DNA from: an uncultured Gemmataceae bacterium
Lineage (GTDB): Bacteria; Planctomycetota; Planctomycetia; Gemmatales; Gemmataceae
DNA: 34,905 nt
Assembly (NCBI GenBank): GCA_963750165.1
Contig: CAVVPN010000002.1
Location: 1 to 34,905 of the forward strand
Direction of reading: 5' to 3'
Shown here: piece by piece, positions 1 through 19,024 of the stretch
Layout of the letters: each line of letters begins with the position of its first letter
Position numbering within the stretch: position 1 is the first letter of the stretch
Made by a program: the position numbers and the translations under genes
The notes under the pieces: model-generated
The model's input: only the letters and a program-made list of their open reading frames with translations
Database searches by the model: none
Told to the model about the DNA's origin: nothing

Positions 1-15
1 GGAATTACCCCAGGA
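1..15. other. Left attachment junction of element A (attP half-site)
   Basis: GG-AA-TTACCCCAGGA: 5-15 is the reverse complement of 18072-18082, and GG at 1-2 matches GG at 18087-18088. Confidence 0.7.
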
Positions 16-265
16 GGATGCGCTGCCGGGCACCGTGGCCGTGCCTTTCACGTTCGGCCGCACGGTGTAGCGCACGACCGGCCGGGAATGGCCTCGAGAC
101 GCGCGTGTGCCGCGCCCGCCGCCACCCAACTGGTTCGTTGGCCGCCTGGCCTCGGCAACGCGGCCCAAACCGTTGTAGGCGAGCGTTACAGGGGGCCGGG
201 TTACGACCCCGACCCTGGTACAATGGTGTTTGTCGGTACGGCCGGCGGGACGCCACCGGCCTGAT

Positions 266-316
266 GAACCCGCCGTGGTGGCACCGCCCCTACTCCGGCG
301 ACCACGCGGCGGGTTC
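266..316 (+). promoter_or_regulatory. Leader hairpin upstream of the wHTH regulator gene
   Basis: GAACCCGCCG (266-275) pairs with CGGCGGGTTC (307-316), extended by TGGT/ACCA; TACAAT -10-like hexamer at 219-224. Confidence 0.35.
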
Positions 317-340
317 GCCGACTTGATGGGAGTACATGAA

Positions 341-1201
341 ATGTCTGATTTTGAAGCCGTTCGAGCCAAGAGCCTTGCAGAAGCCGCAGAGCGTCATAAG
401 CAGCAAGAAGCCGCCCGCGCACAGCAACTGGAACAGGACAGATTGAACAGGCTGTGGGACCGCGCTACCAGCGGCACTGGTCGTCTGCTACGTGAAACCG
501 AAGAGTGGGTTGTCGCCAATCCTGACGGGGAAACTCCGCCGTTTCTGGTGGCATGGTGCGAACGGCTTGCCGAATTGGTCAAGGAACTGGCCGCACGGCA
601 AATGCTGGACAAGTTGACCACACCCCCCACCGGCATTCAAGGTAATGTCCTGGACGCATGGCATTGGGCCGTGGAAATCCTGCGTGCAGCTCGAACTGAC
701 CTGAAGAGTACGGCCCAGTTACTTCGGCAAGCCGCCTGCACGGCACCGACACTCTTCATAACGCGATGGCTAGTTAGCGGATTACGTGAGCAGATTGAGG
801 GGCGCTATGCACCCGAAGTGTCGGCTGACGCCGGGACGGCATCCATTGAGGGAGATCAGCAGCACACCGCGGCCCCAAACGTATCCGACCGTTTCCCAAC
901 CGCCACCGCGGTAACACTACCGTCCCCGCCACAGCAGGAAGGCAACCCGTTGCCGTGGGGTGGGCCTGAGTGGGACGCCCAACCACCGCTGACGAGGCGC
1001 CTGCTCCGGTACATGAACGGCCGGAAATCGGTCCTGCGAAGCGATCTAGAGGATACCGTCTGGGCGGAGCGGGACATCAAGCCCCCGGCCATCCGCAAGG
1101 CGGTTCATAACGCCAACAAGTATCTTGGGAAAATCCCCGACAGCCCCCTCCTAGAGTGTGCCCAGGATGACCAAGGCAACCCCATCGTCCGCTGGGTGTA
1201 G
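341..1201 (+). CDS. Putative transcriptional regulator with C-terminal winged HTH
   Basis: ATG at 341 after GGGAG; C-terminus LTRRLLRYM..DLEDTVW..IRKAVHNANKYL resembles an OmpR-type wHTH; a repeat array follows immediately. Confidence 0.6.
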   Translation: MSDFEAVRAKSLAEAAERHKQQEAARAQQLEQDRLNRLWDRATSGTGRLLRETEEWVVANPDGETPPFLVAWCERLAELVKELAARQMLDKLTTPPTGIQGNVLDAWHWAVEILRAARTDLKSTAQLLRQAACTAPTLFITRWLVSGLREQIEGRYAPEVSADAGTASIEGDQQHTAAPNVSDRFPTATAVTLPSPPQQEGNPLPWGGPEWDAQPPLTRRLLRYMNGRKSVLRSDLEDTVWAERDIKPPAIRKAVHNANKYLGKIPDSPLLECAQDDQGNPIVRWV

Positions 1202-1210
1202 CCACGTCCT

Positions 1211-1247
1211 GTTACCAACAAGTTACCTGGCGTAACTGGGCGGTAAC
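1211..1247. promoter_or_regulatory. Four-box operator array (GTTAC x2, GTAAC x2)
   Basis: GTTACC at 1211 and 1222, GTAAC at 1232, GGTAAC at 1242; ~10-11 bp periodicity; lies upstream of the replication operon. Confidence 0.6.
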
Positions 1248-1298
1248 ACCCGACCGTTAAGCTTGCTCCTGTTCGCCCACTACCAGGAGCAAGCTACT

Positions 1299-1532
1299 AT
1301 GGCCAAATCCACCTGCGACATCCTGCCCGAGATCCCCGACCCGGAACACATCCGCCGCCGGCTTGCCGTCGTGCTGACGGAGGCGGACGTGCTCCGTGCC
1401 CAGTTGCGTGTATCAGCGCGTGGTCAACGTGAGCGCGAGCGGTTGGCCGCCGTGTTGACGAAACGTGCTCGGTCTATTCCACCGCACAACGCTACGCCGC
1501 CCGAACGGACGGAGGTAGACCGTGCCAGTTAA
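1299..1532 (+). CDS. Small helical hypothetical protein
   Basis: AGGAG RBS and ATG at 1299; amphipathic helix IRRRLAVVLTEADVLRAQL. Confidence 0.65.
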   Translation: MAKSTCDILPEIPDPEHIRRRLAVVLTEADVLRAQLRVSARGQRERERLAAVLTKRARSIPPHNATPPERTEVDRAS

Positions 1533-1695
1533 CCAACCCCTCAGCACAGAGCCGGAATCCACACCGGCCGCGGTAGCCAACTGGGTGCCGACTGACCAAC
1601 TACTTGATGCATTGGCGGATCTGCTAATTGAAGCCGCCAGGAACGGCGGCCCCGCAACAGATGATGAGAGCAAGACGGTGCTGCGACGGTCGTAG
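1522..1695 (+). CDS. 57-aa hypothetical protein (not in the ORF track)
   Basis: GGAGGT RBS at 1511-1516, GTG at 1522, TAG at 1693-1695; reads MPVNQPLSTEP...LLDALADLLIEAARN... Confidence 0.55.
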   Translation: MPVNQPLSTEPESTPAAVANWVPTDQLLDALADLLIEAARNGGPATDDESKTVLRRS

Positions 1696-1769
1696 CGCCA
1701 TGAAAGTGAATGGGCCGTTGGTGCGGCTCTCAACACACCAACGGCCCCAAACGACGAGGATTGAACCCA

Positions 1770-2180
1770 ATGTTACCTTCAAAGCGCCATCAGGGCAAGG
1801 GCGACCGCTCGGCCGCGTTCGACTACCGTACTTACCTCGATGAAGTGGTGAGACGCGGGCACTTCTTCACAGTGCCAAGGGGTTGGGCACGGACTCTCGG
1901 CCTCACCACCGCCGCGCTGGTCGCGTACCTGTTAAACTGCGGCCGCAGTTCAGCAAATGATGGCTGGATTCCGGCCTCGGAACGGTTCGTCGAAACTGGT
2001 ATCGGGATGAACGAGGACCGTCAGCGACGAATCCTGGAGTGGCTGGTTGAGGAGAGATTGGCCGAAGTGAAGCACTTCGATCGTTCGGGCATGGGGAACG
2101 TGCGGCACATTCGCATCAACACCCACCGCCTGGAGAACACGGTTCGTGCCCTCCTTCAACAGGAAGGAGGACAGCGGTGA
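1770..2180 (+). CDS. Phage replication-initiator-like winged-helix protein, copy 1
   Basis: LGLTTAALVAYLL..DGWI..ETGIG..RQRRILEWLVEERL..HIRIN pattern resembles the N-terminal wHTH of phage replication initiators. Confidence 0.6.
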   Translation: MLPSKRHQGKGDRSAAFDYRTYLDEVVRRGHFFTVPRGWARTLGLTTAALVAYLLNCGRSSANDGWIPASERFVETGIGMNEDRQRRILEWLVEERLAEVKHFDRSGMGNVRHIRINTHRLENTVRALLQQEGGQR

Positions 2181-2617
2181 TGGCTGGACGTAAGAGACAG
2201 TGCCGCAGTGGTAGCCCACGGCGCCATCGAATGTTCGACTACGAGCGTTGCCTGATGCGCCACGGCTATCAGCCTTACCGCTGCAGAACCAATTACTTCC
2301 CAATCATCACGCCTTGGCTGAGGGTGCTGGGAGTGGACGAGGTGTTCGTGCTTGGACACTTCCTCGCCCTTGCTGTGGAGGGTGACTGGATTGTAGCAGG
2401 CGGGTTCGTGCCGTGGCTCATCATGGAAGCCGATGGCCTCAGCGGCGAACTGCTGCACGGCATGGGTCTGGGGCGGATCAGAGGTGCGCTGAATCGCCTG
2501 ATAGCCCGGGGGCTTGCAGAAACGGCCAACCTGACGGTCGGCAAAGCCGCGCCGACGATGTGCGTCCGCATTGACGTGGACCGACTCGACGGCATGGCCG
2601 CTGCCCTTGAGCGTTGA
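2177..2617 (+). CDS. Phage replication-initiator-like winged-helix protein, copy 2
   Basis: GTGA overlap with the previous gene; parallel pattern WLRVLG..VLGHFL..IRGALNRLIARGL..VRIDVDRL. Confidence 0.55.
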   Translation: MMAGRKRQCRSGSPRRHRMFDYERCLMRHGYQPYRCRTNYFPIITPWLRVLGVDEVFVLGHFLALAVEGDWIVAGGFVPWLIMEADGLSGELLHGMGLGRIRGALNRLIARGLAETANLTVGKAAPTMCVRIDVDRLDGMAAALER

Positions 2618-3333
2618 TGGGGGCCATCAACCTGGGGGCGGCCGCCGTCCAGGCCGCCCCCGTCTCTGCCTACGCCAGATTGCTGCGAAGGGGAAACGCC
2701 GCTGAAGTAATTCACCCCTTCCACGTTGAGCCGGGGGACAAGGTCGTGCTGTTGTGCCGTGTATCGAGTTGTCAGCAGGGGAAGTCCGGCAACCTGCTGG
2801 GGCAGGAACTGCATTTACGGCGTGCCGTGGAGCTACGTGGGGGAGTCGTGGTCGGTGTCGTCAAACACGAATGGTCGGGGCGCGGGCCGGAATGGCTGGG
2901 GAAACTGGCCGCGGCCTGCAACGAAGCACGGAGGCTAGGTGCTACCGTGCTGGCGGTTTCAACGGATCGGTTCATCCGAAGTCGTTACTTCAAGTCTACC
3001 AAAAGGCGCCAATGCCAGGCCCAAGCCCAGCAGCACGACCTGATGGATTTGGCATTGGCCGCGAACGGCGTGCGATTGATGACGTTACTGGACCCGGACG
3101 CGCCACCGGTTGTATGTCGGTCACTGCTGGTCAGGTGCGGCCAGGGCAGTAAGGGCCAGAAGGGGGGCAGACCACGAAAGCCCGACGGGACGCCAGGCTA
3201 CCGGAAGCGCCGGCGCGAGGAACTGCTGCCGCGCGTACTGGAGTTGCGGGGACAGGGGGAATCACTGGGGCGAATCGCAAAGCTGACCGGACTGACCAAG
3301 AGGCTGGTGCAAGAGTGGGTGGGACGGAACTGA
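2614..3333 (+). CDS. Small serine recombinase (resolvase/invertase family) with C-terminal HTH
   Basis: LCRVSSCQQ catalytic Ser motif, EWSGR, TDRFIRS, GGRP linker, HTH SLGRIAKLTGLTKRLVQEW. Confidence 0.8.
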   Translation: MMGAINLGAAAVQAAPVSAYARLLRRGNAAEVIHPFHVEPGDKVVLLCRVSSCQQGKSGNLLGQELHLRRAVELRGGVVVGVVKHEWSGRGPEWLGKLAAACNEARRLGATVLAVSTDRFIRSRYFKSTKRRQCQAQAQQHDLMDLALAANGVRLMTLLDPDAPPVVCRSLLVRCGQGSKGQKGGRPRKPDGTPGYRKRRREELLPRVLELRGQGESLGRIAKLTGLTKRLVQEWVGRN

Positions 3334-3592
3334 CGAGGACCGTACCGTTTTGGCCCCGGAACGACCCAGGCCGAATGCGTTGCGCGTGGGAATTTACTGG
3401 GGAAACGTGCTGACAGGGTGCGGCTACTTGAATGGAAAACCTATACAACAGAACGCCCATGCGCACCCCTCAGAAGCCGCCCAGAACACCACTAGCAAGG
3501 TTAACGCGGCCGTGGCCGGGGATGGGTGTACCCAGAACCCATGCACGCCCCGCAAACCGAGACAGACGGAGATGGGGGTCGATCGATCAGGG

Positions 3593-3636
3593 AGCTACAC
3601 AACTACAGTTACCTTATCCCGAAGTTACAAGTTACA
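3593..3636 (+). repeat. Short (C/T)TAC(A) tandem-like repeats
   Basis: gCTACA, aCTACA, GTTACC, GTTACA, GTTACA clustered in an AT-richer patch upstream of a small HTH gene. Confidence 0.4.
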
Positions 3637-3648
3637 GGGAGTTCGACA

Positions 3649-3813
3649 GTGACAACCCAGGATTGGCTCAACGGGTGGATTGAGAAAGCGCGGGAGCTTC
3701 ACTGGAAGGGCTGGAGCCACCGCCGGATCGCTAAGGCCCTGTTCGAGCAAGGCGTCGGCGTCAGCCTCCCCACCCTGCGACGGTGGACGGCTACTGCCAC
3801 AACCAAGGAGTAG
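3649..3813 (+). CDS. Small HTH DNA-binding protein (54 aa)
   Basis: GGGAG RBS and GTG at 3649; ARELHWKGWSHRRIAKAL..VSLPTLRRW. Confidence 0.65.
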   Translation: MTTQDWLNGWIEKARELHWKGWSHRRIAKALFEQGVGVSLPTLRRWTATATTKE

Positions 3814-3818
3814 AAAAC

Positions 3819-4547
3819 ATGAACGTGACCGAATGGATCGCTGACTTCGATAAGCGTGCGACCGAGGCCCGCAAGGCGCTGGCGTTCGTCTTCCAGTTGG
3901 GCGAGTGCCCACCGCCCCGCACGGCCCAAGACGTGGAAGCCCTGCTTCAATTTCGCACGCGACTGCAGCTCAACGGCCCGGCCGATGAGCAGGCCATTCA
4001 TAAGGCCGCAAGGCGTGCCGCCGAATGGGAACAGGGGCAAGTGGCCCTTGTACTGGAACAGTCCCTCACGGCCGGGGAACGCGCCCTGCTGGGCGACAAC
4101 ACCGGGACGGTCATCGCCGGCGACCTGCTCAAGGAGGCCACCGGCATTTACGACCCTGACCTCGGCGCGGCGATGGCCCTGCTGCTTTCCGCCCTTCCCA
4201 CTGACCACCCCGCCATGCTCCAGCCTGACCAGTGCTATCGGCTGGGGTGGCATAAGGTGCCGGCCTTGGTGCTGGGGCCGCCCGCCTGGACGGCTCCCGG
4301 CAACTTCGGCACCCACTACCAGGCTCGGGCTTGGTATCACGTCGCCACCGCCATTGAAGTCACCCGGCGGTGGCAGGAAAAGCAGTTGGAGCGGCAGGAG
4401 GCCGAACGGCGGGCCGAGGAGTACCGCCAGCAGACCGAGGAAGCCCGGTTCGGCCTCCAGCTGGAGGCCGACCCGCACCACCGCATCAACCAGCTGCAAG
4501 CCCGGGTGCGGGAACTGGAAGGCCAGGTGCCCACGACCGCCAAGTGA
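3819..4547 (+). CDS. Hypothetical protein with C-terminal coiled coil
   Basis: AAGGAG RBS, ATG at 3819, coding-like composition, Q/E/R-rich C-terminus. Confidence 0.7.
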   Translation: MNVTEWIADFDKRATEARKALAFVFQLGECPPPRTAQDVEALLQFRTRLQLNGPADEQAIHKAARRAAEWEQGQVALVLEQSLTAGERALLGDNTGTVIAGDLLKEATGIYDPDLGAAMALLLSALPTDHPAMLQPDQCYRLGWHKVPALVLGPPAWTAPGNFGTHYQARAWYHVATAIEVTRRWQEKQLERQEAERRAEEYRQQTEEARFGLQLEADPHHRINQLQARVRELEGQVPTTAK

Positions 4548-4596
4548 TGTCCACCGAACATATCCAACGTACAACCTTGAACCCAGGGGAAATCCC

Positions 4597-5514
4597 ATGA
4601 ACCATAAAGCACTGATTGACGAAATGGACCGGCGGTGCGACGCAATCATCCGCGCCGTCCGACGGGGCAGCCTGACACCGAACAACGCCTCCAAATTCGT
4701 CGGCCGCCGGGGCTGCCGCATGCTGACCAAGACGCAGACCGAGGCGACCGTATTCAACCAGGACAACTACGCGGTCTTCACTGTGACCACGGCGGACATT
4801 GACCGAGACGGCGATGTCGTGCTACCGCTGGGTATTCAAACCCGCAACTACGCCCGCAACCCTGTCTGGTTCTTCGGCCACCAGTCCCACCCCCACCCCA
4901 TCGGGCGGTGTGTGGGGCCTGACAGACGGCTGGCGTGGTGGGCGTCGGACGAGATCGCCAAGGCCGGCTGCCTGTTCGACGCCGCGGACCCGGACGCCAT
5001 GTTCGTCTGTGACAAGGTGAAACGCGGCTTCCTCAACGCCACGTCCATAGCCTTCGTACCGATCAAGGCCCGCCGTCGCGACGGCGCCAGCAAGGCACAC
5101 CAGCACCACGGCGACGGCCCGGTGGTCGGCGGCTGGCTGTTTGAGGCCGTGGACCTGACGGAAATCTCCATCGTAGGCGTGCCATCCAACGCCGGGGCCA
5201 TCCGGGACAGCCTGGACCGGGAAAAGGCGTTCATCAGCCCTGCACTGCAGAAGGCACTGGCGCCCTACGCGGCCGCAGCCAAGGGCAGGAGCTTTTCCGG
5301 CTGGCGCCCGCAGTGGGAGGGCAGGCACACCAAGACGGCCACGCCCGCCACGGCACCGGCGGGCGGCATTGACCGCTACACCTACGAGCGGGTTCGCCAG
5401 GTTCTTGATCACGTAGAGCGGGCGGCCATCCTCAACGAGGTGGCGACGAAGCTGGACCGGATGCTGGCCAGCCTTGACCAGATACCCGAGGCGCAACCGC
5501 TTGGGGCGGGCTAG
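4597..5514 (+). CDS. HK97-family prohead maturation protease
   Basis: DRDGDVV, NPVWFFGH (His), PIGR, ATSIAF (Ser), LTEISIVGVPSN motifs; the real start is probably 4597 rather than 3856. Confidence 0.88.
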   Translation: MNHKALIDEMDRRCDAIIRAVRRGSLTPNNASKFVGRRGCRMLTKTQTEATVFNQDNYAVFTVTTADIDRDGDVVLPLGIQTRNYARNPVWFFGHQSHPHPIGRCVGPDRRLAWWASDEIAKAGCLFDAADPDAMFVCDKVKRGFLNATSIAFVPIKARRRDGASKAHQHHGDGPVVGGWLFEAVDLTEISIVGVPSNAGAIRDSLDREKAFISPALQKALAPYAAAAKGRSFSGWRPQWEGRHTKTATPATAPAGGIDRYTYERVRQVLDHVERAAILNEVATKLDRMLASLDQIPEAQPLGAG

Positions 5515-5640
5515 CCGGGCGGCCGAGGCCGATTGCTGCGCCGTGCTTAGCGTATGCCGCGCCCCGCCAGACCGGGCCGGGAACTTTGCCGCCTACGTTT
5601 AGGAGGCACGTTGTACACCGTTTTACACGGTTTGAGGTAA

Positions 5641-5673
5641 CGGCGACCGTACCCAGGGCGGGCACGGTCGCCG
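5641..5673. terminator. Hairpin between convergent genes
   Basis: Perfect 10-bp stem CGGCGACCGT / ACGGTCGCCG with a 13-nt loop; no clear U-tract. Confidence 0.4.
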
Positions 5674-5745
5674 GAAAGGTGTTTGCGGCGGTTTGTGGAA
5701 CTATCCGGGTGCCGGCAGGAGTGAAGGGGTATGGTCGCGGTTCAA

Positions 5746-6279
5746 CTACGAGCCTTTGGATTCGGCCGCCTTTGCCAACTTCGTCAGCTCCTGCAACTGC
5801 TTCTGCGTGAGCTTCGCCGGTTCGCCGCGCTGGCCCTTCTTGCCGGCAAGCAACTGGATGCGGACCGTGGTCATGGACAGGCCCTCGGCCCCAAGGGCGA
5901 CCAGCGCGGCGTGCGCCCCCTTGGGGGTGAAGCCCCCGGCCTTGCCCATGGCACGCAGCACGGCGGTAGCGGACTGTTCGTACACCGTGAAGCGGTTGGC
6001 CTTGGTGCTAGCCGACTCGCCTGCGCTGCTCGCCTCACCTGTGGTGTCCGGTTCGGTGCCGGTGGCGTTCTCGGCGGCTGGCTCGGTGGCGCCGGCGCCC
6101 TCAACGGCTGGCTCGCTGGAGCCCTCAAATTCCTCCACCAATTCACGGATGTACTCGTGGTCCACCTGGCCGGCCCCGGCCAGGCGGTCGTTGACAAACT
6201 TGAGGCAGCCTTTCTTCACCGGCTTGCCGGTGATTTCCTTGAGCTGCTTGGCGGTGATGGTGGTTTTGGCGGTGGACAT
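5746..6279 (-). CDS. Hypothetical Lys/Ala-rich protein, possibly DNA binding
   Basis: AAGGAG RBS before ATG at 6279; basic termini with an acidic linker. Confidence 0.65.
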   Translation of the reverse strand: MSTAKTTITAKQLKEITGKPVKKGCLKFVNDRLAGAGQVDHEYIRELVEEFEGSSEPAVEGAGATEPAAENATGTEPDTTGEASSAGESASTKANRFTVYEQSATAVLRAMGKAGGFTPKGAHAALVALGAEGLSMTTVRIQLLAGKKGQRGEPAKLTQKQLQELTKLAKAAESKGS

Positions 6280-6470
6280 GGGTTCGGCTCCTTGTGGTCG
6301 TGCGCCTGCCACAACGGCAGGCTTGTACCAAAACCATATCCGCGTCACACCAGACGCGCAAGCGATACGCGGTGACAGATGGAAAGGCGGACAGACAGCA
6401 ATTCAGGCGTCGCCGCCGGGCGGCAGATCAAAGCAGATTGACGGTTTGGCTCTACGAGAGGAGGTGCAAT

Positions 6471-6881
6471 TTGATAGGTCACGGGGAGAAGTTGTCCAGA
6501 AGGATGGAGGCTGCCATCACGGCGCTGTTGACCGAGCCGACGTTTAGCGGCGCCGCGGCCAAGGCCGGGGTAGGCGAAGCGACGTTGCGCAGCTGGCTGC
6601 GGCAGCCGATGTTTGCCGACGAGTACCGCAAGGCACGGCGGGCCGCACTGGAAGCCGTAATCGGCCAGATGGCCCGGGCCAGCACCAGGGCTGTCCGCTG
6701 TTTGGAGCGGAACCTGCGTTGTGGGGTGCCGGCCGTGGAGGTGAAGGCGGCCCAGGCCCTCGCCGACCTGGCGCTACGGGCCGCGGCGCAGGATGAACTG
6801 GAGCGCCGCGTTGCGGAGTTGGTACAGAAGCTCAGCGCAGGCGAACAGAACCCCTGGGGAGTTAGAAATGAATCTGCGTAG
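6471..6881 (+). CDS. HTH protein, candidate small terminase / packaging-redirection factor
   Basis: GGAGGT RBS and TTG at 6471; GHGEKLSR..AITALL.EPT..AAAKAGVGEATLRSWL HTH followed by helical segments; TerS role is inference. Confidence 0.55.
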   Translation: MIGHGEKLSRRMEAAITALLTEPTFSGAAAKAGVGEATLRSWLRQPMFADEYRKARRAALEAVIGQMARASTRAVRCLERNLRCGVPAVEVKAAQALADLALRAAAQDELERRVAELVQKLSAGEQNPWGVRNESA

Positions 6882-7200
6882 CCTCTTGCGCAAGCTCGAA
6901 AAGCTGGCGGCCGAGGCCGCGGCTGCAACTCCGCCACGGCGGCCGACGCTGGAGGAGTTCCGGCAACTGCCGCTGGAGGAGCGGATCAACATTCTCAGAA
7001 CGCCGGAACTTTGGTCGGGACGGCGACCGGGGATGAACGCGCCTGCCTCCCGGGTCCCCTTGGACCAGTTCCGCCGTCTGCCGTTAGAGGTGCGGAAGCG
7101 GCTGCTAACCTCTCACCACCTGTCCCGGGAAGAGTTTGACGACGCATGCCGAGGGGAACTGGCGAAGCCGCAAACGCCCTCCGCCACGGAGGAAATCTGA
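6868..7200 (+). CDS. Hypothetical protein with internal repeat
   Basis: Overlaps the previous gene; LEEFRQLPLEER / LDQFRRLPLEVR duplication. Confidence 0.65.
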   Translation: MNLRSLLRKLEKLAAEAAAATPPRRPTLEEFRQLPLEERINILRTPELWSGRRPGMNAPASRVPLDQFRRLPLEVRKRLLTSHHLSREEFDDACRGELAKPQTPSATEEI

Positions 7201-7284
7201 CAGCATTGATCTCGCCCGTCGTTTACGTGTCCGAATCGATCAGCTGATTGAAATCAGCTGTAGGCAATCATGTAAGAGGCAACC

Positions 7285-9163
7285 ATGTTCACACCAGGCT
7301 ATTTGACTCGCGAGGAAGCCGAACAGCTGAACGCCCTGCAAGCGCTGGTCGGCCGGTTGCTACGCCAGAGGGACGCCGTGCAGCCCCCCGCCTACCAGGG
7401 GGGCACCTACGGCGGGGAAGGCCACGGCGTTACCCACAACACCCCATTCCACGCCATCATTACCGCCGGTCCCAACTCCAATGGACTCTATAGCTGGAAA
7501 CAAGTCATTGCCTACAGCTACGGACACGGTTACTGGGGGGACATCGGTGGCACGGCCACCCTGGCAACGGGTCCGGCTGACGGGGACGGTAGTGGGGGGC
7601 TGATCGGTGACATGGACAACATTCACCCAGCCTACGAGGCCAATGATAATATTGTGCCGGTGAATACGGTGGTGCAGATGCGGCGGGCCTGTATTGATAC
7701 CAGTGGTTCGGATTTGGACTGGATGTATGTGTTTGATGCGCCCGGTGGGCAATCCACCACCCAGGTCGGGCCTTTGATTTTAGACACCAGCACCACTACC
7801 TACAACGCGCCAACCACCGTGAGCACAACCACGCTCACCGGCGCCGTGCCCGGGAGCGAGTCGCCGGGGTTCGGCACCGCGGACCTGACCCGGGCCACGC
7901 TAACGGACGGGAGCACGGCGGACATCGGCAAGACGGGGTTCACGCTTACCAACGTGACGCCCGGCAGCCAGACGAGCCAGTACAGCGTCACGGTGACCAG
8001 CGCCGGCACGCTGGTCACCCCGGTGACCGTGACGCCGACCGGCCAGACGCTCACCGGCACCACGGCCGCCACCAGCACCGTCACCCCGGCGCTGTCGCAG
8101 ACCATGACCAGCATCGGCACCCCGGCCGGCGGGTTCGGGCTGTCCGACCCGGTGACGCTGACGCCAACGACGGGGCCGGCCGTCCCGGTGGCGAACGTCG
8201 CTTACTCCTTCGCCACCGACGCCACGGCGGCGTCCTACGACACGCAGCTGCAGTACAGCATCACGGACCAGACGGCGACCACGGCTTACTTCACGGTGGT
8301 CAGCACGGCGGGCGTCGTGGTGAACACGGTCAAGGGCCAGCTGACCGGGGCTTCGACCAGCAGCCTGAGCGTTGCGCCAACGGGCTACATCACCGCGGCC
8401 ACGGTCACGGTGACGGGCGTGCCGACGTTCCCGCTACCGGTGGGCACGCTGGTCTACAACGAGGTTGATGACGTGTTGCTCATCAGCAAGAGCGCCGTCT
8501 CGCCCGTCTACTCCGAGTTCGACCCGGGGAGCGGAGGCGGGGGGGGGTATCACGGGTACGCTGACCGGCGGCATGGTGCCAGTGGCCAGCGGCAGCAGTA
8601 CGCTAACCAACAGCACCGCCGGGGATGACGGTAGCAGTTTCTATCTGTTCAAGGCGCTGGGTCTCAACCAGGCGGGTAGCCCGCCCAGCTTCAGCAGCGC
8701 CGGCTCACAGACGGACGACGCCGCCCTGGGGGATGTGGCCTGGGTCGGGCTGAGCGGCGTTGACACGGACTGGACCGGCGTGGAGGCGCCGCCGGCCGGG
8801 GAGACGCGGGTCTACTGGTGCGTCATCACCGCCGCCGGCGTGACGTGGACCCTCAAGCACAACACCGGCAGCAGTCTGGGGAACAGGTTCGACCTGCCCG
8901 GCGGCAAGGACGTGGTAGTGACCGCCGGCGTGGTGTTCGCCATCGTCTACAACACGACGGCCGGCGGCGGCTTCGGTGCCTGGCAGGTGATGACGGCCGT
9001 GGCCCCGCGGCAGACGCCGGCCGGGGTAACCGGCCTGGCGGCGGCCGGCACGGGGACGGCCCTGAAGGACGACAGCACTTCGACGGGCGGCGTCGGCAGC
9101 ACGGCGGTCACGTTCGGCGACGTGGTGGCGGCGCTGAAAGCCTTGAACATCTTGCCGCAGTGA
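7285..9163 (+). CDS. Tail-fibre/virion adhesin-like protein (~625 aa), frameshift at G9 run
   Basis: Thr/Gly/Val-rich beta-type sequence; ORFs 7285-8628 and 8465-9163 join at a Gly linker if the G run at 8539-8547 loses one base. Confidence 0.55.
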
Positions 9164-9164
9164 A

Positions 9165-9575
9165 TCAGCGCCCTGCTTCGGCCAACCAGCGGTCGCCCCA
9201 CTCGTTCTTGACACTGTGTTCGGTCACCCGGCCATCGCGCAGTACGTAGAGGATGTCGTTGAGCCGGCGGCTGCCGTCCCGGTCAGGCTCGATCTTGTAC
9301 CAGACGGAACGTACGACCTGGACGCGGCCGCCGGGCCGAACCCTGAGCCGGGCGGCGAGCCGGCCGTCCAGGTCGTGCGGGCCCCAGGCGACGAACCGCG
9401 CCCCCTCGGCGCTGAGGTAGTCGGCGACGGCCTGCTCCTCCAAAGTTTCAGGCTCCGCCGATCCAACGCGCACCGCGGGCGCCGGACTGAAGACCTGGGC
9501 GCCCGCCAGGTAGCCGCCGGCCGCCCCAAGGGCCAGCGACAGCAGCCAAGCGGCGGCAATCGTTGTACGGTTCAT
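9165..9575 (-). CDS. Exported/membrane-anchored hypothetical protein
   Basis: N-terminal MNRTTIAAAWLLSLALGAAGGYLAGA signal/TM segment. Confidence 0.65.
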   Translation of the reverse strand: MNRTTIAAAWLLSLALGAAGGYLAGAQVFSPAPAVRVGSAEPETLEEQAVADYLSAEGARFVAWGPHDLDGRLAARLRVRPGGRVQVVRSVWYKIEPDRDGSRRLNDILYVLRDGRVTEHSVKNEWGDRWLAEAGR

Positions 9576-9589
9576 AGTACACTCTGGCA

Positions 9590-9626
9590 GCAATAGAATA
9601 TTGTGATACTACAATTATATTATAGG
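9590..9626. promoter_or_regulatory. AT-rich divergent promoter region
   Basis: AATAGAATATTGTGATACTACAATTATATTATA, a strongly AT-rich patch between divergent genes. Confidence 0.5.
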
Positions 9627-9764
9627 GATGGGTCGGCTGGCCCGGCTCGGGGCGCCGTGGCTGCCGGTGGACGGCGGTGCTTTGCAGTGGCGACGGTGTG
9701 ACCGGAGGGCGCTATACTTGGCTACAGTGCGGGGCAGGCCCACATAGGATTACGTGGCGGAGAA

Positions 9765-10292
9765 GTGATTATGGCGATCATGCGTGTCGGTAGGTTTTGG
9801 GCGAATTTCTGTGAAGAGCCCACACCATTCCGTCGGCGCGTAACACGGAGCGTGTGTGCCCTGGCCATTCCCTCGCACTATCAACTGGACGACCATTCCT
9901 GCGCCTTCGTGACCGCGCTCAACGTACTGAAGCACTACCATCCGCTGACGTCGCCAAGGGAACTGCTAGGGATTCTTCAACCGCATCCCGGCACGGGCCG
10001 CGACCAGGGCGCCGTCATCAGGGCCTTGCGGCATTTCGGCGTGGCAGCGAGTGTGCGTGTTGGGTTGGGGCCGCGCGGCATCTTCAACCTGCTGGTGCGC
10101 AACAGCTTGGTTATCGTCACGGTCTGGCCGGAAGGAGACGAATGCGACCACTGGTGCGTAATCCGTGGCATTGACCTTGTGCGGGAGAAGATCTTCTTGG
10201 TCAACCACGGGCAGCGCCGTGGGCTGACGTGGCGCGGGTTCAGGGACGTGTGGTGGCCCCGGGGGCTGGGGCTGGCGTGCGGGAGCGTTTGA
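9765..10292 (+). CDS. C39-like cysteine peptidase
   Basis: QLDDHSC (Q..C), DHWCVIRGID (His), IFLVN; start codon uncertain. Confidence 0.78.
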   Translation: MIMAIMRVGRFWANFCEEPTPFRRRVTRSVCALAIPSHYQLDDHSCAFVTALNVLKHYHPLTSPRELLGILQPHPGTGRDQGAVIRALRHFGVAASVRVGLGPRGIFNLLVRNSLVIVTVWPEGDECDHWCVIRGIDLVREKIFLVNHGQRRGLTWRGFRDVWWPRGLGLACGSV

Positions 10293-10397
10293 CGTGCCTT
10301 CGCGTCGGGAGCTTCAGCAAGCAGTTCCCTTGGCCCTGCCGCGGCCACCTGCGCCCGGTGAGGCATTCGCCGTAAGCGCCCTCTTCGCTAGGGGACG

Positions 10398-12712
10398 CTA
10401 TTCGGCACTTTGCTGTTTCGCGGCCCAGAAACCGCCGTCCCCATCGTTCTCCAGGGTAATCCCCCGCTCGCGTTGAATCCGGTGGGGGACCTGGGCGTTG
10501 ACGGTGGCCGCCATCGAGTTCCGGTCCTTGTGCGTGAACCGCTGGGCGAGCTTATCGACAATCTTCGCTTTGGTGAGTGGCTCCGTGGCGGTAGCCGCCA
10601 GCAGGAATTCGGCGATGCTGGCGATCACCCCGGGCCTACGGGATTTATCACTACCCCTGACGGCGAGGGTAGTGCCGCCGCTACCAGTGAGCTTGCCCAG
10701 GCGCTCAAGGATCATGTCGAAATCTCGGGGGCGGTCGCTGGGGTCTTGCTCGATACACTCCTCCACCAGTTCCAGGAGTGGCTGCCACCGAGGTGGTACG
10801 CACGCCCTGAATTTCGAGCCCAGATGGGTTGCCTTGGACCAGGCGTAAATGCAAGTCTTGCCGAAAGCGTATACGTCGCTGTGGCGGCCGATCCGATCTG
10901 CCGGCAGTTCACCGAGTTGCTCCGGCGGGGCGTATTTGATGGTTCCGGCTACACTTGCGTTGAGGATAGACTTTTCCGTAGACGACAGCCCGCCCTGTGT
11001 TTCCTCATGTTCCCGCCGCAAGGCCAGCCCGAAATCGATGATTTTGACAAACCACTTCTCCCCTTCCTTGCGGACGAGGATGTTGCCCGGCTTGAGGTCA
11101 CGGTGTAGGATTCCCTGGGCGTGGGCCGCCTTCATGCCGCGGGCGATCTGATCGGCGACGGCCAACAACTGCTCCGGTTTCAGGGTGCCCCGCTGCTCCA
11201 CGAATTGTTCCAGGGTGCCGCCCATGAAGTAGGGCATGACGATGTACGGCCGGGAGAGGCTGCCGAGTTCGGCATAGCTACAGTCCAGCACGCCGATGAT
11301 GGCGGGGTGGTTCAGCCCGCTCAGGGCGTGCGCCTCGGTGAAAACCTTGTCCGGTTTTCGGGCCAACTCGGAGACGTGTAGCGCCTTGACCACCACATCC
11401 TTGTGTTGGAAGAAGACGTGCTGGCAGAGAAATACGGTGCCGAAACCACCGGCCCCGAGGATGCGCACTGGCCGGTATTTCTCCATAGGGAAGGGCGCAA
11501 ACCGTTGCCGGTCAAGCGCCGCGGCTTGGCGGATCGCCTCCAAGGCCGCATCCCATTGCTGCCGCTCCAGCGCGGCCAAGTAGGCGTTGTAAAGCACCTC
11601 CGCTTTGGCGCCGGAATCGTTCACCTTGGCGGCGACCTGCTGGAATGAGGTCTGGGCGCCGTCGAACTCCCCGACGCCGACCTGAAGTTTGCCCAGGCCG
11701 TTCAGCAAAGCGGGCATCTGCTGCCGCTGTTCCGCAGGCAGTTGGCGGAAGCGATCAAGCAGCGCGTGGACGGCTTGACGTTCGTCGTCGCCGCGAATCG
11801 AAAAGCTGTTGCGGGGGTTGATCTCGCCGCGCTGCATGCCAGCATTCGCCAGTTGACGCTGTACGTCCTGCAACAAGGATCGCACCTCGCCCGCGTTCGC
11901 CAGGTGCAACTCGTGCAGGCGCCGAATCTCGGCTTGAATGTCCAGCACCGCGTCTTCAAGCCATTCGAGTCGATCGCCCAGCTTATGCAGGGCTTGATTA
12001 AGCCCATCGAACGCCGCGGCTTGGGCGGCGGAGAGTTGTCCTAGGTTGGCGAGCAATTCGGCTTGCCCCTGAAACAGCTGCCGCTGCCCGTCGTACAGCA
12101 GGCTGCGGGCCAGTTCCGCATTCGATTCGACCTCACGACGGAAGAAGTAACCGAAGGCCAGCACCAACAGAGGCGGCCCTCCCTGGGGGGGCAGGAGGAG
12201 CAGTTGGGCCAAGTTAGGGCACTGCGGCGTCAGGGCCTTGGCGACGCCCGCGACCGCTTCGGTCGCGCCCTTGATGAGAGAATGCTGGTCTGTATAGCGC
12301 CGAAAGTCCGCGCTCTGGCGAGCAATATCCGTGCGGTCCATGTTGTCGGCGGAAAGCAGCCTGGCTTTGAATGCCTTGTTGAGTTCGCTCAAGCAGGTGT
12401 CTCGAAAGGTGGGCGGCGATCCCTCAAAGGCGATGGGATTGCTGGTCAGAAAGCGGCCGACCTGCTCACGGAAGGCTTTCTCCTCAGCCGAGGCGAACAC
12501 CAGACGTTTGGCCTTGTCGAAAAGGCCATCACCGGCCAAGGCGACGCCCAAGGCTTTCCACGACCTGTCGTTGGCGGTTGCGAGCGCCGGGGCAGATTCT
12601 GGCTGGGGTCGGTGAAGTGCCGCTCGACGGCCGCCGCCACGCGATCAACCCCCTCCACGCCGAGAACCTGGCGGACACTAAAGCAGACGAGGCTGGAAAT
12701 GACGGAATGCAT
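10398..12712 (-). CDS. Ser/Thr protein kinase with N-terminal helical/TPR region and C-terminal wHTH-like domain (frameshift near 12588)
   Basis: GAGGFG, VVVK, HRDLKPGN, DFG, GTIKYAPPE, SDVYAFG; TPR-like LLNGLGKLQVGVGEFDGAQ; the N-terminus MHSVISSL.. joins after adding one base. Confidence 0.88.
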
Positions 12713-13166
12713 GAGGCGCTCCTCCAAGGGCGCGACTGGCACGTTGCCGGCCGTTTCACGGGCCAGTGTATGCCGGGCGCCAAGTCGTTTCCAGCGATGA
12801 TTTCAGGATTTGCGCAAAAGGGCAGAATGCGGGGGTGGACTGCCGCAGCTGGACGAATGCCGCTGCACGGGAAGGACAATACGAGCCACAGCGACACGGT
12901 GACGCCGAACGCCGCGAAGATCGTGCGGCGCCAGGAAGCGTTGATGCGGGCGGTGCTGGTTGCTGGGGACTTCGGCCTGATCGTGCTGGGCGCCAGCCAC
13001 GGCATGCCGCCGACGGCAACTTCGGAGGAGGTTGCCAACCCCGCCCCCCGGCAATCTTCTGGCCGTACAAGTCATGGGTTGCAAATACTCCTCAACGAAC
13101 CCAGAATGAGGTTGGGCTGTCACTATACAAATGGCAATCGCCCCTACGTCCCACAAGGAGAGCCCG

Positions 13167-14204
13167 ATGCCCCCGTCCATCGCCAGTGAACGGTTCGAGG
13201 AGATCGTCAAGGCCGCCGACCCCGTTGCCAAAATCCTGGGCATGGTCAACTCATCCCCGCCCACCGTCGAGGACGACTGGCTTGACTGCAAGCAGGAGCC
13301 GACCGACTCGAACGACCCCAAGCAGCGCGACAGCAAGATGAAAGGGATGTGGCTGCAGGCGCTGTCGGGGTTCAGCAACAACGAGGGCGGCGTCATCATT
13401 TGGGGCCTTGACGCCAGGAAGGACAGAAAGGACAAGAAGTCGTCCATTGACCAGATAAACGGCGTGAAACCAGTCAACGACCCGCAGGGGTTGCGGGCGA
13501 AACTCCTGGAGTGGCGGCGACAGGCCACCGACCCGCCGGTGGGCAACGTCCAGGTGCAAGCCTACGATCACCCGAGGGAGGCCGGGAAGGGCTTCGTGGT
13601 CTGCTTCATCCCGGAAGGGCCGCACAAGCCGTACCGCACCAACGAGGGCGACCGGTCGCAATACTACCTGCGGACGACGGACAGCTTTGTTGTCATGAGC
13701 CCGGCCATCCTGCGGGCCATGTTTTACCCCCGCACCAGGGCCGTGTTCCACGTCGAAGTTGAGATGAGTTGGGAGTTCTCCACTAGAAACGTGCCGTTTG
13801 CGCCCGCCCATGAGGCCAAAGTCACCGCCGTGGTGCGGGCGACAAACAAGGGAATGGCGACCGCGAAGGAAATTACGGTGCGCTGGGACCACCGCGTCCA
13901 CAAACTGCAAGGTTTGTTCACCCAGATGGGGCATGGGTGGCAAATTGAAACCGGGTACGTCCGGTGCCTGGTGGGCATGAATCCAGGCATGCCGATGTTC
14001 GAAATGGGGACTTGGAGTTGGACCGCTGAGGGCGTTATCCGTACAGACCACCGCGTCACGCCATTCCCTGACGACCCCGAGTTCAGGTTCGCGTTCTACG
14101 CGGAGAACCAGGAACCGCAGTACCTAGTCGCCCGGTTCAGTGCGGAAGAATTAGCTGACAACCGTCGAGTTATCGTAGAGGCATCAACCGGCGAGCCGTT
14201 TTGA
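13167..14204 (+). CDS. Schlafen/AlbA_2-domain protein
   Basis: EDDWLDCK, LSGFSNNEGGVIIWG, PHKPY..YYLR motifs; AAGGAG RBS before ATG at 13167. Confidence 0.82.
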   Translation: MPPSIASERFEEIVKAADPVAKILGMVNSSPPTVEDDWLDCKQEPTDSNDPKQRDSKMKGMWLQALSGFSNNEGGVIIWGLDARKDRKDKKSSIDQINGVKPVNDPQGLRAKLLEWRRQATDPPVGNVQVQAYDHPREAGKGFVVCFIPEGPHKPYRTNEGDRSQYYLRTTDSFVVMSPAILRAMFYPRTRAVFHVEVEMSWEFSTRNVPFAPAHEAKVTAVVRATNKGMATAKEITVRWDHRVHKLQGLFTQMGHGWQIETGYVRCLVGMNPGMPMFEMGTWSWTAEGVIRTDHRVTPFPDDPEFRFAFYAENQEPQYLVARFSAEELADNRRVIVEASTGEPF

Positions 14205-14247
14205 GGTGATGCTAGGCAGTATCCCCACTGGATTTGATGAGGACTGA

Positions 14248-15682
14248 ATGTTGAAAACCTCATTTTATACACAAGCGATGACAGCGGACGGCAAAACCGT
14301 TTCCATCCCGCTTGGCGACTTCCGCCAAGAGAAAGGCCCTTGGCCCATCAAGTTCGGTGTTCCCGTAGAACAGGCCGGACATTGGCTCCAGCACCTGCAA
14401 GCAGAATGCGGGCCTCGAGGCTGGGGCTACTCCAGCACCAGCGAAGCTAACCAAAAGGAGAACAGCGGTAGCATTACGATCCGCGCCGGGGCTATTGTAC
14501 CCTGCCCTGAACTGATCGTTGTTTGGAAGAGGCGCCGAGGTGGGACAATCGGCGTAAAGGCGCGACCTGCCGGAACTCCAGAACTGGATCGACCTACCGC
14601 GGACGAGTTCTTCGCCCGCGTGAACGATCGCGCGCGGCTAAACCAGCTTGAGAAAATTTACTGCCGCAGGGAGATTTACTACGATGGTCTTCCCTGGCTC
14701 GGCGAGTTGTGGCTGGATGATTCGCTCAGGCTCGGTCCACCATCACGGCAATACGAGGAGGCGTTGTGCGGCCCCCGGGTCATCCTTGTGGACGCCGAGG
14801 TTGAGGCGATTGACGGCCACGACGCTGGCTGCGTCTTCGACCTGAAGTTGCGCGAACTGTCGGTTTTCCTCAGCATCGTCATGCGGACGAGCGTGGAGTG
14901 TCCCAAACTCGGGCGCGAGTGGGTGTTCGATGTCTTACCGGACGGACAGGCAAATAGCGAGGCTCGCCAACTCGGCTACCACGAACCGAACCGCCTCTCC
15001 GCAATGCCAGCGAAAGGAACGTCACCACCGATTCCGCTCCATCCTGTCAGCAGGCCAGACTTTTCCGAACCAGTCATCTACTGCGAATGGAAGCAAGAGA
15101 AACTGCCCTGGGACGTGGTGGACCTGTGGCGAGCCTACACCTCGTTATCGGACGAAGCGCGACGGCGATTCTTACAGGCCGGCAACCTTTATCGCCGGGC
15201 CATCTCACTCGGACGCGACGAGCAGACGCTCCGCGTGGCCCTGATGGTGGTCACCTGTGAGGCGCTGAAACTGCCGGAGCAGAAGTACGACGGGCATAAC
15301 GCCGCGAGCGTCGTCCAGGCACTGCTGGGGAACGCCGCCGGAGCGGTAATACTCGGGAAGGACGTTCACCCCTTGGGGGTCCGCAACATGCACCTGCACC
15401 GCGGGGAGTTCAAGGGAGGTGAGTTCCTGAAGTTGGTCACCGAGTCCAGCGACCGCGACCCCACCTTCGACCAGCGTAGCAGAGAACTTGGCGCCATCAC
15501 CTGCCGCCATCGTCGAATGGCTGAGGAAGGGCGGCACCTACACCCTGCCGCCGAAACGGTTTGCTGCTCGCACTCGTTGGGGCCGAGGAACCATCACCCT
15601 TCTGCTTATGGCAGCCGGGGCCATCCTTGCTGGCGGCGCAGTCCTCGGCTGGCTTCTCCACGGCCTATTTGCCGGAAGTTGA
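14248..15682 (+). CDS. HEPN-like (ApeA-type) protein with C-terminal TM helix (frameshift near 15500)
   Basis: ALMVVTCEAL and RNMHLH (Rx4H) motifs; the +1 frame continues AAIVEWL..ITLLLMAAGAILAGGAVLGWLL. Confidence 0.55.
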
Positions 15683-15974
15683 TCTGGTCTAACGGCAGGG
15701 GCTGCCACTACCACAAATATGGATGGGCCAACGAGCTTTGCACCGGTGGTCACTGCGGCCGGGGGCCACGCGGTAGCGGCCTCCGCGTGGCCCCCGGGCT
15801 TTGCTCTCCAAACCGTTGGGCCGGGTAGCTTACATGCGCCCTGACGGCGCCTAAAGGGGTGGGCCAGGTATGCCCCGAACACCAGACGCCCCAGCCGCTG
15901 TTATCATTCTCGTCCGTGCTTTACTGGACACCGTGCCAAGTCCCATTCTACCGTCTGGCCATCCCTCTGTATTG

Positions 15975-16019
15975 TTTACCCAACCTCGGTTGCCCTGCCC
16001 AACCACGATTGGGTAAAAT
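15975..16019 (+). promoter_or_regulatory. Promoter with two palindromic operators upstream of XRE-integrase
   Basis: CAACCTCGGTTG (15981-15992) and CAACCACGATTG (16000-16011); outer inverted repeat TTTACCCAA/TTGGGTAAA; TTGCCC-18 nt-TAAAAT. Confidence 0.55.
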
Positions 16020-16060
16020 GGGCAGTGGAGGTGCGCAATTAGGCTGTAGGAGGAATTGGC

Positions 16061-16315
16061 GTGAGCGACTTCGGTACCAACCTGAAACGTCTGCGGGCGG
16101 CCAAGGGGCTGACGGTCTACCGTCTGGCTCAGCTGTCCGGCGTGACCGAACAGAACATCGCCAAGCTGGAAGAGGGGGGCAACCCCAAGCTGACCACGCT
16201 GGTCAAGCTGGCCGCTGGCCTGGGCGTGCCCGTGGCCGAACTGATTCCCGCGGCCAAACCCGCCCGCAAAAGCAAAGCGGCCGGCAAGGGTGTTACCAGC
16301 ACCCCGCCGGCCTGA
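16061..16315 (+). CDS. XRE/Cro-C1 family repressor
   Basis: LKRLRAAKGLTVYRLAQLSGV..IAKLEEG.NPKLTTLVKLA; AGGAGG RBS. Confidence 0.92.
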   Translation: MSDFGTNLKRLRAAKGLTVYRLAQLSGVTEQNIAKLEEGGNPKLTTLVKLAAGLGVPVAELIPAAKPARKSKAAGKGVTSTPPA

Positions 16316-16344
16316 ACACCACGACCCTGGATAGGAGGATCGCA

Positions 16345-18146
16345 ATGTCTGCCAAACAGTTTAACCGACCCGCCACCGCAAACGGCAAGACCGTGCGTGT
16401 GGCCTGCTACTACCGCATGTCAACGGCTGAGCAGGACGGCAGCATCGACCGCCAGCGCAGTCAGGTCCGGCCTTACTGCAAACAGAAGGGCTACGCCATC
16501 GTCCAGGAGTACGTTGACGAGGGCATCGCCGGGGACCGCGACGACCGGCCCGGCTTCCTCAAGCTGATGGCAGACGCCAAGGCCGGCCTGTTCAGCCGCA
16601 TTGTGTTGGACGAGCCGAGCCGGCTGAGCCGCGCCGACCCCCTCGACTTTCTGGCCAAGGTCGCCCACCCCCTGCGGGCGCAGGCGTTACCGTCGATACC
16701 GTGGCAGACGGCGAGCAGGGCTGGGACGACCTGGCGGCCATCATCATGGCCACCGTCAAGGCTGACCGCAGTTCGGGCGAGGTCAAGAAACTGTCGCACC
16801 GCGTCCTGTCCGGCATGGCCAAACTCGCCGCCGGCGGGCACGTCCTCGCCGCCGCTCCCTACGGCTACAAGATCGAGTATGAAACGGTGGAGTTGCCGGG
16901 CAAGCCGCCCAAAACAAGGCCCGTCAAACTGGTGTCTGACCCCGCCCGGGCTCGTCACGTCACCTGGCTGTTCTCTACCTACGCGGCCGGCGGGCGCACC
17001 CTGGACTCGCTCTGCAAGGAACTGAACGCCCGCAACGCCCTGCCCCCGGCCGGCAACGGCGGCCGCCGGCCCAAGTACGGCCCGAAAGGGCCGCCACGCT
17101 GGACCCGGTACGTCGTAAGGACCATCTTGCGCAACCCGCGGTACACCGGCTGCCAGGTCTGGAACTGCCGCACCCGGAGCAAATACCACACCCTCGCCGA
17201 AGGGGGAAGGCTGGAGGTCAAGAGCCGACACGGTGAGGGGAGTAAGCCCCTGCAACGCGAGCCGTTCAACGACCGCTCTGCATGGGTGGTCGTCCCCAAC
17301 GCTCACGAACCACTTACCGACCAGAAGACTTTTGATGCCGTTCAGGCCCGGCTGGCAGACCACTCCCACAGCGGCCGCGGCTCCAACCTCGGCGCCTACC
17401 TGTTCAGCGGCCTGGGCGTTTGCCTGCACTGCGGCCGTAGTTTGAAGGGCGCCAGCAAGGGCGGCCGGCGCTACTACATTTGCGCTGCCTACGATGCGGC
17501 CGGTGTCAAGGTGTGCCAGTACGGGACGATCAGGGAGGACGTGTTACTGGCCAAGCTCTTGGAGGTGATGAAGCAAACCTTCCTTGACCCCGACCACCGG
17601 AGCGACCTGCTGGCCCGCGCCAGGGCCAAGCTGGAGCGGGAAGTCCGGCCCGAGACTTTGGAACCGCTGCGCCGGCAGCTGGCCAAGTTGGAGACGGACA
17701 TTGCCCACGGCAACCGCAACCTGCTGTTACTGCCGCCGGAGCGCGTGGCTGTGGCAGTGGAGACGTTGAAGGCGTGGGAGGCCGAACGGGACCGGCTACG
17801 GGAGGAACTGAACGAGCGCGAACACGGCTCGCCGGTAACCGACCTGGAGGCCACCTTCAGGGCTGTCGAGGAGTGGCTGGGCCAGCTGGAGGAGTTGGTC
17901 AAGCGTGGGGCCAAGCTGGGCACGTTGCCGCGGCTGCGGGACGCCATCCGGGCAGGGCTGGCCCGGTTCGCGGTGCGGTGGGAACACCGACGCATGAAGA
18001 AACGGGTTCGACACGACTTGGCCGACGGCGTGTTCCACCTGTGGGACGCGCGGGGGGTCGTGAAGCAAGTATCCTGGGGTAAACACGGTTGGCCGTCCAC
18101 CCGACACACGAACCGCCAGGCGCCCTGGTTGTTGATGAACTTGTAA
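16345..18146 (+). CDS. Large serine recombinase/integrase (frameshift near 16678)
   Basis: YYRMST, DEGIAG, DRPGF, SRLSR; PYGY, ILRNPRYTG, HEPL; zinc ribbon YLFSGLGVCLHCG..YYIC..C; coiled coil. Confidence 0.93.
18072..18088. other. Right attachment junction of element A
   Basis: TCCTGGGGTAA-ACA-CGG, where capsid coding similarity ends. Confidence 0.72.
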
Positions 18147-18886: not shown

Positions 18887-19003
18887 GGACTTGGTTGCGT
18901 ACAACCGGGCGGTAGGCAGGTTGCAACCGGCGGAATTCCAAGGGATTTCGCTACCGGCTGGTTGCGGAGACACCTTCCATCCGCCTCCCGCCTGGTTGGA
19001 ACT

Positions 19004-19023
19004 GTAACAGCTTGTGTAACACC
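19004..19023 (+). repeat. Integrase arm-type site, left copy
   Basis: GTAACAGCTTGTGTAACACC, 17/20 identical to 34801-34820. Confidence 0.7.
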
Positions 19024-19024
19024 C

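Follow-up and report, generated by a model that had tools for sequence, protein, structure and literature searches.

A probable serine-recombinase element inside a phage-type major capsid gene of an uncultured Gemmataceae bacterium

In contig C2 from the assembly of an uncultured Gemmataceae bacterium, a large serine recombinase gene runs directly into a piece of a phage-type major capsid gene on the opposite strand. The question that this locus raises is whether an element has entered the capsid gene by site-specific recombination and, if so, where the two ends of that element lie. The window, meaning the whole stretch of DNA that was analysed, is all of contig C2 (34,905 bp; C2:1-34905), and the assembly has 12 contigs with a total of 9.6 Mb and approximately 66% GC. 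Because the window is an entire contig, there is no DNA left of position 1 or right of position 34905 in the assembly. It is probable that positions 1-18086 are an integrative element in the phage-type major capsid gene, an uninterrupted copy of which is on contig C3. The features concerned are as follows.

1..18086, plus strand: probable integrative element, about 18.1 kb, 63.9% GC, with the recombinase at its right end
1..15: attL, predicted element-side (P') half at the contig start; arm at 5-15, the exact reverse complement of 18072-18082
16345..18146, plus strand: large serine recombinase gene; ATG at 16345 after GGAGGA; catalytic serine codon at 16420-16422
18072..18107: attR; P half-site at 18072-18086, crossover in CACGG at 18084-18088, then the capsid-derived B' half
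18087..18887, minus strand: HK97-type major capsid gene, internal fragment (PF05065, 1.8e-35, profile positions 19-272 of 280; residues 148-417 of the C3 protein)
C3:2489700-2489701: attB centre (empty site) in the uninterrupted capsid gene on contig C3

The right junction, the paired arms and the recombinase

When the window is compared with its own genome by blastn, positions 18084-18887 match C3:2489698-2490501 with 99.0% identity over 804 bp and no gaps. This is the sole strong match outside C2, there being besides it two 77-bp matches at 12926-13001. The 8 differences within the 804 bp are all transitions which, with the absence of gaps, indicate real divergence of about 1% between two copies or strains and not read error. 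The C3 gene is intact, encoding an HK97-type capsid protein of 441 aa (PF05065, 1.4e-39), and is part of a head module with a large terminase, a portal, a protease-like gene and a head-tail adaptor (C3:2479698-2499697). The capsid protein of the window aligns to residues 148-417 of the C3 protein, which goes on with W418 and 23 further residues to its stop codon.

Left of 18084 the two contigs are unrelated, and the break is inside the codon for Pro417; the forward-strand bases 18086-18088 are the minus-strand CCG proline codon of ...VDGQP in the capsid reading frame. On this comparison the end of the element is placed at 18086/18087, inside the proline codon, and the right junction is fixed independently by the C3 sequence. 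An earlier note on this DNA had put the end of the element in the proline codon of VDGQP, which is where homology with C3 stops, and had predicted a tryptophan codon (CCA on the forward strand) before the shared CGG, which is present in the uninterrupted C3 gene. Its account of the capsid gene as interrupted stands, but it overlooked that only an internal part of the capsid gene is present, and that on the other side of this part there is another mobile element, which carries a tyrosine integrase. The three compartments have 63.9% (1-18086), 67.3% (the capsid piece) and 71.3% GC (18888-34905).

The 11-nt word TCCTGGGGTAA is found at 18072-18082 on the forward strand, with its exact reverse complement at 5-15. 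Joining 18086 (C) to position 1 (G) generates a central CG that is 3 bp from each arm, bearing out the earlier claim of perfect 11-bp inverted arms at this distance from a central CG. The arm word has 2 matches in the window, and still 2 when one mismatch is tolerated; shuffled windows have a mean of 0.24 matches, 2 being reached in 1 of 100 shuffles. As a null from within this genome, 30-nt segments of contig C3 were paired at random 200,000 times; 101 of the pairs share a perfect inverted repeat of at least 11 nt (about 5e-4), a figure for which equal spacing from the junction was not demanded. There are 9 copies of the arm word in the 9.6 Mb genome, where approximately 4.6 would be expected under uniform base use. 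The word is therefore not rare in the genome, and the weight rests on its placement at both ends of the element. A chance origin of the paired arms is unlikely.

Apart from the pair in the window the genome has seven copies of the arm word, and in four of these (C3:2644099, C4:80115, C11:566697, and C12:1036874) the next two bases are TG, giving a 13-nt word. The symmetric part of attP is positions 5-15 only, beyond which 2 of 10 positions are the same on both sides, and the bases outside the arms are GGAA and ACAC. Identity between attP and attB is restricted to the 5-bp core CACGG (18084-18088).

The recombinase gene next to this junction matches PF00239 (2.1e-18, profile positions 1-78 of 145) in the frame of 15859-17022, with the catalytic serine in YYRMSTAEQ, and matches PF07508 (4.2e-17) and the zinc ribbon PF13408 (2.9e-09) in another frame, 16701-18143. 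Against PHROG the match is to the integrase family phrog_95 (2.8e-50). The protein aligns over its full length with homologues of 575-739 aa, all of which have the three domains, the best being a metagenomic protein of 59% identity; a coiled-coil motif in the zinc-ribbon domain is implied by this full-length alignment only. A phmmer search of the recombinase against PDB sequences gave no match. The proposal that a large serine integrase is located at the junction is thus in agreement with the three-domain recombinase found adjoining it.

The last conserved residues of the recombinase (...HLWDARG) are about 10 codons before the att arm, and the gene has no stop codon of its own before the att site. 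In the integrated state the stop is reached after 20 codons of antisense capsid DNA (18144-18146), and in a circular form the frame would extend 87 codons into element DNA, to 262-264, which would mean that the C-terminus of the recombinase differs between the integrated and circular states.

These features suggest that the element of about 18 kb entered the capsid gene by site-specific recombination through its serine recombinase. In the circular form attP would be no shorter than 30 bp, with the two 11-nt inverted arms flanking the central CG, and attB would lie within the G-Q-P-W codons of the capsid gene (residues 415-418). Integration would yield attR, which is present at 18072-18107, and a predicted attL; since the contig begins at the junction, the element half (1-15) is all that the assembly has of attL. 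The last 24 capsid residues are lost without replacement from the element, and the capsid gene would therefore be inactive while the element is in place. Going by the mechanics of serine integrases, excision by the recombinase with a directionality factor would restore the capsid gene exactly.

The left end and competing explanations

Position 1 as the left junction, and with it attL and attP, is inferred from the arm at 5-15 together with the start of the contig. An arbitrary cut cannot explain why the contig begins at the crossover. Most likely the assembly graph branched at this point, the capsid DNA of the flank being almost the same as that of C3, and C2 was left as a branch of its own, which would represent a second copy or the allele of another, co-assembled strain. 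There are no other N- or C-terminal pieces of the capsid gene elsewhere in the assembly, which would fit with the flanks having collapsed onto C3. Redundant stretches of about 99% identity are present in two other places, between C7:9354-19672 and the end of C4 (10.3 kb) and between C8:1520-4183 and C3:1839010-1841671 (2.7 kb). These point to unmerged overlaps or strain variants, and would mean that variant or duplicate branches have been retained by the assembly. There are 28 gap openings in the 10.3 kb of the C7/C4 overlap, which reflect the indel noise of the assembly.

Several points weigh against an element with these ends. The left flank is absent from the assembly, so attL and attP are reconstructions across the contig end. 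The contig starts at GG, 2 bases into the shared CACGG, and not at the point of divergence between C3 and the element, so that the proposed branching of the assembly does not fit exactly. Nor are contigs always cut at homology borders by the assembler, since C7 retains an untrimmed overlap of about 10 kb with C4. The centre of the dyad picks CG as the crossover, but this CG is palindromic, and sequence comparison alone fits any dinucleotide within CACGG. There is weak resemblance between the half-sites of attB and the arms of attP. A second instance of the arrangement was found in none of the collections searched. Finally, the recombinase has a -1 frameshift in its catalytic domain, placed by alignment to a 589-aa homologue at about 16668-16690, beside a run of five C at 16668-16672, which may be an assembly indel or real decay. 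A frameshift likewise interrupts the tyrosine integrase gene of the second element (near 34120-34145), and given the indel noise of the C7/C4 overlap both frameshifts may be assembly artefacts.

It is nonetheless very unlikely that the right junction is real and position 1 is not the left junction, the element continuing past the contig start with an arm match that is coincidental or internal. Such a reading would be favoured by the 9 genomic copies of the arm word against about 4.6 expected, and by there being no flank with which to check the contig start, but an inverted repeat of at least 11 nt is found in about 5e-4 of random pairs and the arms here are in addition equidistant from both ends, while the logic of a serine recombinase puts the P' half-site at the junction. 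Less probable again is that C2 is a free circular replicon of 34.9 kb, with 34905 joined to 1 and the capsid piece a captured fragment, the serine-recombinase element having integrated at a pseudo-site composed of the 3' end of the tyrosine integrase gene and the capsid fragment. Neither flank is found elsewhere in the assembly, the contig ends in AC, which is what should precede position 1, and its final 17 nt agree with the left half-site of C3 at 8 of 17 positions. However, the arbitrary opening of a circle would fall at the crossover about once in 35,000, no terminal overlap was found, a match of 2 nt is to be expected 1 time in 16, and the resulting site would be without the capsid C-terminus.

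The redundant contigs and indel noise of the assembly, with both integrases frameshifted, might suggest that 18086/18087 is an assembly chimera in which an unrelated element has been joined to a copy of the capsid gene. This is highly improbable, given that the junction adjoins the recombinase gene, is at the dyad centre with the other arm at the contig start, and is within the 5-bp identity with the target. Least probable of all would be that the 11-nt arms are the terminal inverted repeats of a transposon and not att halves. There are inverted repeats at both ends of the 18-kb segment, and the open reading frame (ORF) at 6294-6878 has a weak match, below cut-off, to the helix-turn-helix of an ISL3 transposase, but no DDE transposase was found in the family searches, the arms are 4 bp inside the borders and not at them, the GGAA and ACAC outside the arms are not a target duplication, and there is a serine recombinase at the end of the element.

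The second element and the contents of the first

Homology to C3 also breaks off at 18887, corresponding to capsid residue 147/148, not far from where the Pfam capsid domain begins (residue 142 of the C3 protein). The approximately 150 nt beyond 18887 have a non-coding look and include a GC-rich hairpin. The features of this side of the window are:

18888..34905, minus strand: second element, satellite-like, 71.3% GC, adjoining the N-terminal side of the capsid fragment
22251..22580, minus strand (same as the capsid gene): TerS-like gene
23417..24946, minus strand: S49 head-maturation protease
27519..29741, minus strand: DUF3987 primase-helicase
33296..33634, plus strand: HTH_3 repressor
33741..34904, plus strand: tyrosine integrase of the second element (PF00589, 7.4e-14; phrog_1), the stop codon of which is 1 nt before the contig end

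There are also HTH_17/excisionase-like genes and a sigma-70 region 4 protein on the strand of the capsid gene. Judged from its predicted products, the gene set of 18888-34905 is that of a phage satellite in layout. The case is somewhat better than even that this second element was likewise inserted in the capsid gene, in which case C2 would be a doubly interrupted allele of the C3 locus and both contig ends would be explained by one cause. It is possible, but rather doubtful, that the capsid piece is instead a late gene captured by the satellite, the serine-recombinase element then having entered that copy. Captured late genes are described for phage-inducible chromosomal islands (PICIs) in the available part of PMC10111431.

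Homologues of the tyrosine integrase in other genomes have 52-63% identity, and in none of 23 such loci is there a capsid gene nearby. A tRNA-Ser gene adjoins the integrase in 5 of 13 scanned loci, and two loci adjoin a homologue of the host gene at C4:860561-861852. In the 3' end of the tyrosine integrase gene (34795-34885) the word CGTAAC is present in pairs, and these are also found in homologues of the gene in other genomes (L067-L069). These may be putative arm-type binding sites, or codons of a conserved RNxSRN peptide. The candidate arm-type motif of this integrase is not enriched, with 30 matches against 33.9 expected.

Most ORFs of the 18-kb element have no Pfam, PHROG, NCBIfam or PADLOC family match. 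Those with recognisable products are:

3856..5511, plus strand: 552-aa protein with a weak HK97 prohead-protease-like stretch at residues ~309-453 (phrog_80, 1.4e-07; phrog_11321, 2.4e-12)
10401..12551, minus strand: Ser/Thr protein kinase, cargo (PF00069, 1.5e-38; PADLOC mad6, 4.5e-52, and PD-T4-6, 4.6e-43)
13131..14201, plus strand: Schlafen AlbA_2-domain protein

The kinase resembles defence-associated kinases, and together with the AlbA_2 protein it may have an anti-phage role. The 552-aa protein, which also matches PF04586 (5.6e-4) and TIGR01543 (1.5e-05) below their cut-offs, is the sole signal of phage morphogenesis in 1-18086; its protease-like stretch alone matches elsewhere, with 29-41% identity, and the Atlas yielded no usable hit to it. 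A 447-aa ORF (7285-8625) has one distant homologue. Family searches of 1-18086 found no terminase, portal, primase or recognisable capsid gene, and there is no primase, AlpA or terminase gene in 1-16300. When 20 ORFs of the element were compared by hhalign with a capsid profile of 24 sequences, all probabilities were below 1%, and a promoter and terminator scan of 17900-19600 found none. The element in the capsid gene may be a satellite, a phage in decay or an island of some other kind.

Known systems and the capsid gene as a target

SPbeta in spsM, skin in sigK, and A118 in comK are serine-integrase elements that split a gene, which is restored on excision. The present element is like these in having a three-domain recombinase and a half-site attP, and in breaking an ORF without providing a replacement end, and it differs in its target, since those elements split developmental or competence genes of the host and this one a phage-type capsid gene. 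In A118-type sites each half-site is contacted over 25 bp, whereas here the symmetry of attP is limited to 5-15. A half-site model, in which attP is made up of inverted half-sites around a central dinucleotide with short identity to attB, is given in the available part of Rutherford et al. 2013 (PMC3783163), and from titles in its reference list it would appear that the serine integrases studied take their polarity from a non-palindromic central dinucleotide. Unlike those, the dinucleotide at the dyad centre here is palindromic (CG).

The closest precedent for an element that sits inside and disrupts a capsid gene is that of the helper-embedded PICIs (HE-PICIs). In the available part of PMC10111431, these disrupt prophage late genes, most often that for the major capsid protein, and the disrupted gene is made whole again when they excise. 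They are there reported to have one clade of tyrosine integrases and an identity block of about 10 bp, and to be found in enterobacteria and relatives (PMC10111431). One genome in that study (Tommasini, Mageeney & Williams 2023) is noted as having two such elements in one helper (PMC10111431), and the word 'serine' is absent from the text of the paper as available (PMC10111431). The second element of the window is comparable in layout, with an integrase, an HTH_17/AlpA-type gene, a primase and late genes co-oriented with the capsid gene. The 18-kb element, in contrast, has a large serine recombinase that is oriented against the capsid gene, where HE-PICIs have a tyrosine integrase of their own clade; it has no recognisable primase or AlpA gene, does not have the PICI gene order, and is in an unrelated host.

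The PLE (phage-inducible chromosomal island-like element) of Vibrio cholerae is about 18 kb and integrates in chromosomal repeats, whereas the target here is a phage gene. PLE is a satellite-like island moved by a large serine recombinase, and its excision is directed by a phage-encoded factor, according to the available part of McKitterick & Seed 2018 (PMC6002521). The likeness to the present element, as satellite-like and with a serine recombinase, is by description alone, and a phage-encoded excision factor is a plausible model for its directionality factor. Prophages that integrate into prophages have reportedly been described in a PLoS Pathog study of 2021 (PMC8112680); these would be similar in the nested integration of phage-derived elements, and different in being lambdoid prophages of E. 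coli. A limited literature search found no paper on a serine-recombinase element inside a capsid gene.

As it stands, the locus is a tidy but fairly ordinary nesting of one mobile element in another. Should the proposed integration be correct, late-gene embedding would extend from one clade of tyrosine integrases in enterobacteria to a serine recombinase in a distant bacterium with a large genome. The locus would also provide a new and compact pair of serine integrase and att site, for which C3 has the empty site in its natural state, and the palindromic centre could be used to probe integration in both orientations. Serine integrases with att sites are now found in large numbers, and the present case is a single, incomplete locus.

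Homologues of the recombinase are present in 18 of 201 genomes of the family, the best other than its own having 42% identity. There is no capsid gene beside the recombinase in any of 20 loci (19 around homologues of at most 42% identity, and L002), and tblastn of the capsid protein against those loci gave a best E of 2.1. An antisense-capsid-like C-terminal tail is likewise not seen in any of 8 closer metagenomic homologues (47-59% identity). Searches of the genome, viral and metagenome collections for close relatives of the recombinase each returned one distant, irrelevant locus, and neither viral nor metagenome contigs contained the exact att patterns (0 matches in each). Contig C5 begins with a stretch that resembles part of the P arm; this resemblance is put down to chance, C5 being otherwise unrelated. 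The capsid-targeting proposed in the earlier note is probable at this locus, but no homologous recombinase was found beside a capsid gene or with such a tail.

The capsid family is found in 111 of 252 genomes and in 63 of 90 genera of the host's family, mostly as one copy per genome. Capsid identities cluster by genus, and the neighbouring genes are kept in 23-26 of 30 fetched loci (L023-L052). The head module looks like a long-resident or domesticated phage-like cluster, possibly one similar to a gene transfer agent. At the protein level the target is conserved as had been claimed, GQPW being invariant in all 30 homologous capsid loci. At the DNA level it is not: in the 29 loci other than C3 the 42-nt site is identical to C3 at 22-34 of 42 positions, and the dinucleotide at the dyad centre across the 30 loci is CG in 7, CC in 21, and CT in 2. 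Serine integrases need matching central dinucleotides in both sites, which would mean that most of the related capsid genes are not usable as attB as they stand. That the family-conserved capsid gene is a landing pad for two unrelated elements, with the 18-kb one being the first helper-embedded satellite with a serine recombinase, is put forward only as an unlikely, speculative reading, under which the capsid gene would be rebuilt on excision and the making of capsids would hinge on the departure of the parasite.

A third, diverged fragment of a capsid gene is present at C10:21971-22426, with 47% identity over residues 104-253 of the C3 protein.

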